Shown in pieces: positions 44,772-47,638 of a DNA stretch of 64,000 nt; the stretch's first letter is position 1, and each line of letters begins with the position of its first letter. A model generated the notes under the pieces. That model saw only the letters and a list, made by a program, of their open reading frames with translations, searched no databases and had not been told where the DNA came from. The stretch lies in sequence record MK327935.1. One strand, 5' to 3'. The translations under genes were made by a program, and so were the position numbers. This DNA is from Escherichia phage vB_EcoM_G2494.

Positions 44772-45992
44772 TTATACTGCCATTTGAGCGGTGATCGCTG
44801 GATGGCTTTGATAGTTGTGAATTTTAAAGTCTTTCGGAGTCTTTGTCAATACCTCATCTAAAGATTTAAATTCCGGCAACTCAATTGTTGGTTTATCAAA
44901 CGGAACACGGCTTAACTGTTCCATAACTTGATCAAAGTGGTTTTTGTAAATGTGAGTATCTCCACCAGAGAAAATCAGTTCTCCTACCTCAAGATCACAC
45001 ATTTTCGCTATGATGTGAGTTAACAGCGCATAGCTGGCAACATTAAAGGGCAAGCCCAAAAAGCTGTCTACGCTTCGCTGAAACCACATACAAGACAGTT
45101 TACCTTCATTGACGTAGAATTGCACGAAAGGATGACATACACCTAATACAGCATTATGTGTTCCTTGTACGTTCCATGAGTCAATAATGATCCGGCGATC
45201 CGTTGGATTATTTTTAATTTGTTCAATCACGTTTTGTAACTGGTCTTCCCAAATCTTCGGGCGATAGACATATTCTTCATCGTCTTTAGGGCTTGATGTG
45301 TCTACATCCATACTAACAAAGATCGTGGTATCAGGTGCTAAAATGTCACCGCCCAGATATTCATTATCAAACAGATAACCGAAATAACCATCATCTACCC
45401 ATTCCTGGAATCCCCACAAGCAATATGCATCATTAACAAAATTAGATTGAGTCTTCCAGTGATCTGCTACCAGAATATAATCAAACTCTTCATAACGCAT
45501 ACCACGCCAGATAGCACATAAACGGTCTTCTGTTTCATTGGTTGGCGTAAAGTCTTCTACCCACGGGTGTTTAAATGTATGTGTATATTTGCTCTTAACG
45601 CGCTTAATTTTGATTTCACCGTGTGGATGAATCGGTTTGCGTCGCCATGCCATACCATACATATTGCCGACATTATAACCATTGAATCGCAAAGGATTCT
45701 TTTCTTTCATATCAAGACAGTTGCCGCGCCAAATGTCGAAGGCTTCTTCGTCAAACTTACCGCGTGTAATTTCCTGTAAGCGACGGCGGTCAAGTGATCC
45801 CTCCATAAACCATAGCAATTCACCAATTACAGAGGCTGTAGCCATCTTTTTAGTGGTCAGTAAGGGGAAACCCTTGCTTAAGTCAATTCGCATTTCTGCA
45901 CCGAATTTAGAGAGCGTACCTATCCCCGTTCGGTCTTCACGAGGCCAGCCATTATCAAGAACATCACGCAACAGTTTCAAATATTCTTTCAT
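44772..45992 (-). CDS. td: thymidylate synthase with about 115-residue internal insertion
   Basis: ThyA motifs (DRTGIGT, LGVCHPFVQFY, DRRIIIDSWNV, C-terminal AITAQMAV) but 406 aa versus 264-286 aa typical; insert between WRR and DQLQNVIEQIK. Confidence 0.85.
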   Translation of the reverse strand: MKEYLKLLRDVLDNGWPREDRTGIGTLSKFGAEMRIDLSKGFPLLTTKKMATASVIGELLWFMEGSLDRRRLQEITRGKFDEEAFDIWRGNCLDMKEKNPLRFNGYNVGNMYGMAWRRKPIHPHGEIKIKRVKSKYTHTFKHPWVEDFTPTNETEDRLCAIWRGMRYEEFDYILVADHWKTQSNFVNDAYCLWGFQEWVDDGYFGYLFDNEYLGGDILAPDTTIFVSMDVDTSSPKDDEEYVYRPKIWEDQLQNVIEQIKNNPTDRRIIIDSWNVQGTHNAVLGVCHPFVQFYVNEGKLSCMWFQRSVDSFLGLPFNVASYALLTHIIAKMCDLEVGELIFSGGDTHIYKNHFDQVMEQLSRVPFDKPTIELPEFKSLDEVLTKTPKDFKIHNYQSHPAITAQMAV

Positions 45993-46232
45993 CCCACATC
46001 ACCTTTTTCTTATTGATTGCTTTCTTACGCAGTTTTGCTACTGTCTCGTCAATATCGATAAAGACAACGCCACGGTCGAATACAGTAGCAGGTCTTGAGA
46101 TATCGCTATTTTCTTGCACAGGAAGCCATGATGCGCTCGCTTCATCATAGAGATATTATAAACCGTAATAATCTACGGCTACTGCGTAGTTTTCACTGGT
46201 AGCCGTCCATAATTGAATAATACCGACTTTCA

Positions 46233-46923: not shown

Positions 46924-47253
46924 TCAAATCAGTTTGAAATAGTTTTCATTTACATTTTCTTCTGTGATTGCTGTCTTAAATTCTTGACCGTTATCCGGTG
47001 TGATGAAATAACGGTCTGAATAATCACGAAAACGTTTTAAGTGAGATACCCCAACATTAACACCATGTTCCCAAAAACGAAAGGTAATCATTTTTGGTTC
47101 ATATCGATAGTCGCTGGTCAACACAGTACCATCACCGCGACGGGCTTCATAAACCGTAATACATTCACGATTGGCGGCTTTTAGGCATTCTTCAATAGTG
47201 CCGCACGAGATAATACTTACTTTTTCATCTACGATTTGTTCTACAGTCCACAT
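46924..47253 (-). CDS. hypothetical protein (109 aa)
   Basis: ATG start behind promoter 47285-47312. Confidence 0.55.
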   Translation of the reverse strand: MWTVEQIVDEKVSIISCGTIEECLKAANRECITVYEARRGDGTVLTSDYRYEPKMITFRFWEHGVNVGVSHLKRFRDYSDRYFITPDNGQEFKTAITEENVNENYFKLI

Positions 47254-47284
47254 AATATAATCCTCTCTTTGTTTCGATGTTTGT

Positions 47285-47312
47285 ATTATACATCATCTGT
47301 GTTCGGCGTCAA
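47285..47312 (-). promoter_or_regulatory. early promoter TTGACG-16-TATAAT
   Basis: Read on minus strand. Confidence 0.5.
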
Positions 47313-47638
47313 CCTTTTTGTTCCATGAAAAGCGGTGCTGTTTCTTCTTTCAGTTTAATAACTAGCGCGGAAACTTCATCAAGAAAATCTTTTTCCATAT
47401 GAGCAAGCATTGATTTAGAATCTTTGATGACTTTCAAAGAATATTCACTTAGATTTCCTTTTCCTAACAATAATGCAGGATACACACTATGTGGGATCTC
47501 GATTTCATGATATTCACTCATAGTATAATATTTGTGAATTTTTAAATCTATATTTCTTCGTTGTACGTCTACATCAGCAATGACATACAGACGTTCGATT
47601 TTATCACTTTTTTGAGAAAGGGTAGCATTCAAAAACAT
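47309..47638 (-). CDS. hypothetical protein (109 aa)
   Basis: ATG start behind promoter 47668-47695. Confidence 0.55.
   Translation of the reverse strand: MFLNATLSQKSDKIERLYVIADVDVQRRNIDLKIHKYYTMSEYHEIEIPHSVYPALLLGKGNLSEYSLKVIKDSKSMLAHMEKDFLDEVSALVIKLKEETAPLFMEQKG

Follow-up and report, generated by a model that had tools for sequence, protein, structure and literature searches.

The td gene of phage T4, which encodes thymidylate synthase, carries a group I intron with the endonuclease I-TevI, so that a mobile endonuclease is embedded in the gene without destroying it. The intron lies in the region coding for the RS.D..LG.PFN active-site segment, is spliced from the RNA and encodes an enzyme of the GIY-YIG type. 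Inteins with a homing-endonuclease domain (LAGLIDADG or HNH), which are also found in phage nucleotide-metabolism genes, are in-frame selfish modules of the endonuclease type, located at conserved sites of genes for essential enzymes; their distribution across homologous host genes is sporadic, and they decay into shortened 'mini' forms. Invasion with neither an intron nor an intein is represented by Aeromonas phage Aeh1, in which the T4-type nucleotide-metabolism gene nrdA is split by mobE ('genes in pieces'). Extra residues are also tolerated by thymidylate synthases in the surface region of ThyA that is considered here: the L. casei enzyme has an insert of 50 residues in its small domain, and eukaryotic ThyAs also carry inserts. 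To our knowledge, these inserts are short and have no free-standing homologues.

The td gene described here is from Escherichia phage vB_EcoM_G2494 (MK327935.1), of the Krischvirus group (RB49-like, T4-type coliphages), and was analysed in a stretch of 64,000 nucleotides, hereafter called the window. In contrast to T4 td, the window gene has no intron, and its insert is translated and located after WRR, at a position corresponding to residues ~100-109 of E. coli ThyA. Unlike an intein, the module has no Hint domain and no splice-junction residues, and judging from its sequence and the structural model it evidently stays in the mature protein as a domain inserted in a loop. Whereas the host protein of Aeh1 nrdA consists of two polypeptides, the reading frame of the window td is continuous and the module is a domain of the host protein. 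It also differs from the inserts of L. casei and eukaryotic ThyAs in that it is a folded, autonomous domain whose free-standing relatives number in the tens of thousands. The known lifestyles of such elements are introns, inteins and gene splitting, of which a loop insertion that is translated and not spliced represents a variant. An arrangement resembling Aeh1 nrdA/mobE was observed in a phage contig which encodes a Td with a short insert (P0005; L011:4689-7876), where nrdA is split into ORFs of 476 and 324 aa by an ORF of 237 aa with a faint I-HmuI NUMOD-like match.

GenBank has contained the long Td of RB49 since 2003, annotated only as thymidylate synthase, and the five-genome paper covering RB49 remarks only that group I introns were not found. 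In the searchable literature, the coverage of which is incomplete and does not prove absence, no description was found of the insert in RB49 or Krischvirus Td or of endonuclease modules that lie in frame and unspliced in thyA.

The predicted Td has 97-99 % amino acid sequence identity with the Tds of other Krischvirus phages (G2248, W115, RB49, Phi1, JSE and others), and the gene order around td, gp32 ... frd - td - nrdA, is the same as in RB49. The first-pass annotation had described a product of 406 aa with the hallmarks of ThyA, and this was borne out by matches to PF00303 (Thymidylat_synt; E 1.7e-84, 283.6 bits, cutoff 24.3) and TIGR03284 (NCBIfam; 282.7 bits, cutoff 108.35), each consisting of two stretches which flank the insert, as well as by the retention of catalytic and substrate-binding residues. 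In a phmmer comparison with PDB sequences, residues 1-82 and 250-406 of Td corresponded to residues 1-82 and 110-264 of E. coli ThyA. The alignment identified C286 of Td as the counterpart of the catalytic C146 of E. coli ThyA. The dUMP- and folate-binding residues R21, E58, R126/R127, R166, D169, N177, H207 and Y209 of the E. coli enzyme were also checked, and the columns of their Td counterparts (R21, E58, R266/R267, R306, D309, N317, H347 and Y349) and of C286 were invariant or nearly so in two alignments (A1 and A3). Judged from its sequence, td would encode a working thymidylate synthase of the ThyA type. The features of the gene and its product are listed in Table 1.

Table 1. Features of the td gene and its product in the window (coordinates are positions in the window; residues are those of Td)
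Feature	Coordinates	Strand	Basis
td (thymidylate synthase) ORF, 406 aa + stop	44772..45992	-	ATG start; ORF list, Pfam/NCBIfam matches
Shine-Dalgarno-like AAGGTGA, 6 nt upstream of td ATG	45999..46005	-	direct sequence reading
ThyA N-terminal segment, residues 1-118, last residues ...GNMYGMAWRR	45639..45992	-	alignment to E. coli ThyA 1-~100; contains R21, E58, W88, Y112
In-frame insert, residues 119-249, 131 aa, probable relic of LDKD endonuclease-like module	45246..45638	-	alignment, hhalign, pLDDT 94, dN/dS
N-terminal 'stalk' beta-strand (predicted), residues 120-130, PIHPHGEIKIK	45603..45635	-	DSSP strand 2-12 of insert model
Helical core (predicted), residues 153-200, with ...IW..M.. helix and CLWGFQEWVD	45393..45536	-	helices in models
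Degenerate F-D-N-E-Y, residues 208-212, counterpart of family L-D-K-D-Y	45357..45371	-	motif comparison
C-terminal 'stalk' beta-strand (predicted), residues 241-248, YVYRPKIW	45249..45272	-	DSSP strand 123-130
ThyA C-terminal segment with catalytic residues, residues 250-406 + stop	44772..45245	-	alignment to E. coli ThyA 110-264

The neighbourhood of td varies among relatives. Both RB49 (RB49p236) and contig L010 have an intact ORF of 89 aa between frd and td; the window copy of this gene has a CAA-to-TAA nonsense change at about 46156-46158 (minus strand), and its remnant is a 51-aa ORF with a GTG start (45964..46119) which overlaps the start of td. The interval between gp32 and frd contains a gene for a 485-aa 'endonuclease' in RB49, a 340-aa ORF with a CapR domain in contig L010 and two ORFs of 109 aa (46924..47638) in the window, and appears to be a hotspot of accessory or mobile genes.

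In an alignment of 21 sequences, which included E. coli ThyA and T4-type Tds, the extra residues of the window Td formed a single contiguous block between ...GNMYGMAWRR and DQLQNV..., with no scattered small indels. Residues at this position number 9 in E. coli ThyA, about 10 in T4-type Td and 131 in the window Td. The first-pass annotation had reported an insert of about 115 aa at approximately 45290-45640; the block was real, but the alignment gave the larger size and the boundaries shown in Table 1. That the insert has no stops and the ORF is continuous had also been stated, and the frame was indeed open across all 131 codons. The probability of 131 codons without a stop was ~1.3e-4 from base composition, only 1 in 20,000 shuffles of the block remained open, and the other five frames of the block contained 3-19 stops. 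When the window was compared with RB49 and with a metagenomic relative of 89 % identity, dN/dS was 0.13-0.17 for the insert and 0.01-0.11 for the ThyA core, and an in-frame indel of 4 codons was found within the insert between the window and RB49. The insert was matched in 58 of the 58 Krischvirus records which matched td at ≥90 % identity, and its size in the Tds of RB49-like phages is 131-135 residues. Inserts of 126-139 aa are also found in contigs of more distant T4-like phages, likewise in the frd-td-nrdA context (P0003-P0006), whose Td cores are 60-67 % identical and inserts 38-50 % identical with those of the window. The insert is thus coding sequence under purifying selection.

The sole matches in an Rfam scan for an intron were far below the gathering scores (E>1), and since none was near significance a group I intron is not indicated. 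Introns of group I and of group II were both rejected, there being no match to a ribozyme covariance model and no interruption of the reading frame. The insert begins with KPIHPH and ends with PKIWE, followed by D; intein junction residues were not found, as there is no N-terminal Cys, Ser or Thr and no C-terminal His-Asn, and the +1 residue is Asp. Inteins are expected to have an all-beta (Hint) fold, whereas the predicted fold of the insert has a helical core, and an intein was rejected on both the junction residues and the predicted fold. The first-pass proposal of an inserted domain rather than an intron or intein, which had noted the absence of a T4-like group I intron and of intein termini, agrees with these results and with the open, constrained frame. 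The role that it had left unknown could be narrowed, the insert being a truncated relative, without the motif, of the endonuclease-like module described below.

Structure prediction, which had been suggested as a means of seeing whether the insert forms a separate domain, gave a confident folded domain. AlphaFold2 modelled the whole Td (alignment of 150 sequences) with a pLDDT of 95.7 and a pTM of 0.93, the confidence in the insert being equal to that in the core, and the insert alone with a pLDDT of 94.1. In the model, the insert begins with a long strand, continues with four helices and a short beta-hairpin, and ends with another long strand. The motifs of the two terminal strands, PIHPHGEIKIK and YVYRPKIW, are kept across all inserts at this site (site 1), and W44, W61, F67 and D70 (insert numbering) of the helical core are conserved family-wide. 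It is most likely that these N- and C-terminal strands pair with each other to form a stalk.

The insert alone had no match in Pfam or among the PHROG families, and none in a word-indexed protein collection, in which the full-length Td and a profile of long inserts did find relatives. With tblastn, the insert matched thymidylate synthase genes of the jumbo phages Klebsiella phage KP13-7 and E. coli phage UE-S1 (E 1e-11) and a gene of Vibrio phage D181 annotated 'HNH endonuclease' (E 2e-6). The ThyAs of KP13-7, UE-S1 and D181 are of 477-517 aa and have inserts of 195-244 aa at a position identical to that in the window. Inserts of 190-270 aa at the same ThyA loop are found more widely in jumbo, Vibrio and metagenomic phages and in one bacterial chromosome. 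These long inserts match PHROG families labelled 'HNH endonuclease' (phrog_2081, 1.7e-33; phrog_953, 1e-25; phrog_374, 2e-20). The long-insert profile recovered further insert-bearing ThyAs and also free-standing phage proteins of 171-324 aa without a ThyA part, which match the same PHROGs. A direct comparison of profiles with hhalign (seven short inserts against eleven free-standing proteins) gave a probability of 96.8 % and E = 2.3e-10 over 97 columns. Homologues of the insert, for which the first-pass annotation had proposed a search, thus occur both inside other ThyAs and as free-standing proteins. Among 1.84 billion cluster representatives, the free-standing profile matched 85,436 at E<=1e-3 and 2,768 at E<=1e-30, and several of the longest top matches were again ThyAs.

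The genomic settings of several of these relatives were examined. In a phage contig, a free-standing copy is flanked by the terminase gene on one side and the portal gene on the other. Another (P0131, L013:174-1001) starts 17 nt after the stop codon of a thyA-like gene, just upstream of DHFR, and has stalk-like segments at its N-terminus (RKVVEVQP) and C-terminus (YRYEL); because this copy adjoins a thyA-like gene and has stalk-like ends, it suggests that the module unit can exist beside as well as inside its target gene. A bacterial chromosomal thyA (P0152; L005:8001-9362, GCA_031398885.1), flanked by alaS, dprA, gatB and similar housekeeping genes, has a full-length LDKD module at the loop that is occupied in the phage genes. 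A divergent paralogue of the ThyA superfamily (P0135, L012:2450-4152), with the C-terminus ...KPQLKLDLGI and VECAF in the active-site region, has the module at the homologous loop. A split of a thyA-like gene in the L012 contig was not used as evidence, because the gap holds an assembly run of N and the split may be an artefact.

The signature of the family, L-D-K-D ... Y-S ... N, is invariant and located on a beta-hairpin. LDKD was kept in all of the long and free-standing forms (43/43) and lost in all of the short forms (7/7). The signature recalls the D-H...N of HNH enzymes, with Lys where the general-base His stands. No member of the module family had an HNH match in Pfam or NCBIfam, in which no model covers the core domain; the long-insert profile had only a chance-level match among PDB sequences, and a Foldseek search of the PDB gave nothing significant, the best structural match in the PDB being PacI. 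The PHROG families which are matched strongly carry the label 'HNH endonuclease', but such labels are annotations. The tails of the free-standing proteins have I-HmuI NUMOD-like and AP2 matches (E 3e-5 to 0.05), all of them below the gathering score. PacI is without the canonical general-base histidine, having Tyr instead, and its metal ligands are Asp and Asn (PMC4081073). Because PacI shows that the general-base His can be replaced, an LDKD(Y)...N variant is plausible. The module is thus likely, though unproven, to be a variant nuclease of the HNH/beta-beta-alpha-metal type, and the full-length form would be expected to have nuclease activity and to be capable of homing.

The same loop is occupied by the module in at least three ThyA lineages. 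The core of the bacterial P0152 is 65-70 % identical to that of insert-less E. coli ThyA and only 46-47 % identical to those of the phage ThyAs which bear an insert, and the core of P0016, a T4-type Td, is 59-64 % identical to those of insert-less T4-type Tds; both are thus nearer to ThyAs without an insert than to the other ThyAs with one. In several pairs the identity of the modules exceeds that of the host cores (P0010/P0128, 64 % vs 55 %; P0146/P0148, 56 % vs 45 %). Furthermore, 11 proteins (P0142-P0151 and P0154; P0146 is L006:6001-7389) have the module in frame, including its own stalk strands, at a second ThyA site, which lies between IWxEW and GSLGPVYG (E. coli residues 84-88) and is also the position of the small-domain insert of L. 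casei ThyA. The distribution of the module family is sporadic, at a fixed site and incongruent with the relatedness of the host genes, as is characteristic of homing elements.

Within the clade of ThyAs with RFNGxNxGNMY, to which the window Td belongs, no allele with an empty site was found among the top 120 matches, and for this reason one old insertion followed by vertical descent is possible in that clade. Among the proteins examined (alignment A3, window residues ~100-118), nearly all ThyAs with RFNGxNxGNMYxxxWR carry an insert, and most insert-less ThyAs in the same sample have (F/Y)xGDLGRVYGVQWR instead. Going by these sequences, the flanking region may have been co-converted or may have co-evolved with the module.

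The inserts form a series of lengths, from full-length forms of 245-270 aa, through intermediates of ~190 aa in which the N-terminal beta-rich part is gone but LDKD is retained, to the short Krischvirus-type forms of 126-139 aa, in which both flanking sub-domains are gone. The window insert is also without the segment which follows the beta-hairpin in the long forms, and in place of L-D-K-D-Y it has F-D-N-E-Y; the other short forms have LDSDY, LTQKY or LSLVP. The net charge of the window insert is -11 and the short forms are acidic, whereas most of the long and free-standing forms are neutral or positive, the net charge being 0 to +14 in most long forms. Since the motif and the flanking sub-domains are lost and the surface is acidic, the window copy is read as dead both as a nuclease and in DNA binding. 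The insert is probably a decayed, nuclease-dead passenger domain, derived from an in-frame, non-splicing element similar to a homing endonuclease.

According to this proposal, the foreign domain would sit in the surface loop of ThyA that connects the ...YG.QWR helix to the DQ... helix. The full module of ~245-270 aa would consist of an N-terminal beta-strand, a beta-rich sub-domain, the LDKD...YS...N core, a C-terminal DNA-binding part resembling a helix-turn-helix, and a C-terminal beta-strand. With the terminal strands paired, the two ends of the module would lie side by side, and it could fit into the host loop and remain in place, translated but not spliced out. Deletion of the beta-rich sub-domain and of the DNA-binding part, mutation of LDKD and a change to an acidic surface would then have taken place in the Krischvirus lineage, leaving a remnant unable to bind or cut DNA, which purifying selection would maintain as a compact folded passenger. 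The remnant may persist because folding of the enzyme needs folding of the insert and because precise excision is difficult.

A dN/dS of ~0.13 and conservation across relatives of 35-50 % identity also fit a newly acquired function. The relic could have been exapted for a new role in Krischvirus and its relatives, for example in docking Td in the T4-type dNTP-synthesis complex or in regulation. The constraint on the insert (dN/dS 0.12-0.17) is consistent with such a role, as is the strong conservation of CLWGFQEWVD, GGDILAPDT and YVYRPKIWE among inserts which are otherwise 38-50 % identical; the high model confidence would suggest fixed packing on the core, and the acidic, aromatic-rich surface is unlike that of the relatives. 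However, neither a partner nor an activity is in evidence, equal conservation would be expected if misfolding of the insert destroyed an essential enzyme, and the conserved motifs are mostly common to the long forms and are therefore probably fold-determining. Exaptation thus appears unlikely, although it is the best supported of the alternatives to a passive passenger domain.

Continued activity of the insert as a homing endonuclease in this phage is very improbable: its homology to the endonuclease-like family and the fold retained in the model speak for activity, but none of the short forms keeps the invariant Lys of LDKD, deletion has removed the stretch after the hairpin as well as both flanking sub-domains, and the domain is strongly negative. 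It is equally hard to credit that the insert is a lineage-specific extension of the small domain of ThyA, of an ordinary kind and with no mobile-element ancestry. The length of the loop does vary naturally from 3 to 28 residues in insert-less ThyAs, and other ThyAs, such as those in the L. casei and human TS structures, carry inserts nearby. Such an origin is nevertheless contradicted by the hhalign match, that is, by significant similarity to free-standing phage proteins without a ThyA part, and by the finding of the same module at another position in ThyA as well as in unrelated lineages of the enzyme. Least credible of all is that the block is missing from the active enzyme, whether through protein splicing as an intein, as an unusual intron or through translational bypass: td is a classic target of introns and inteins and the block lies between two conserved ThyA motifs, but no Rfam match passed any threshold, the open frame shows purifying selection on the protein, the nucleophile and His-Asn of intein junctions are missing, and the model has a helical core.

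A further reading is put forward tentatively and with rather less confidence. The LDKD module may represent an unrecognised strategy of selfish endonucleases for living within essential genes, which would be the third, in addition to introns and inteins: in-frame insertion into a surface loop, closure of the module by its own two-stranded stalk, and no splicing of either RNA or protein. In that case thyA would be a recurrent target, at two sites and in both phages and bacteria, and the Krischvirus Td would be an end state, in which a dead module has become a permanent domain of the enzyme. The prevailing view is that homing endonucleases persist in essential genes only by means of self-splicing introns or inteins, or by gene splitting. 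The present case suggests that a folded endonuclease module can be tolerated unspliced in a loop of thymidylate synthase, spread among divergent thyA genes and then decay to a permanent domain. It also draws attention to a very large uncharacterised 'LDKD' family, with >85,000 cluster representatives, and marks a permissive insertion site in ThyA which is possibly useful for protein engineering. For the RB49-like phages, it accounts for the unannotated block of 131-135 residues in every Td, and it offers a concrete route from a selfish element to a new protein domain.
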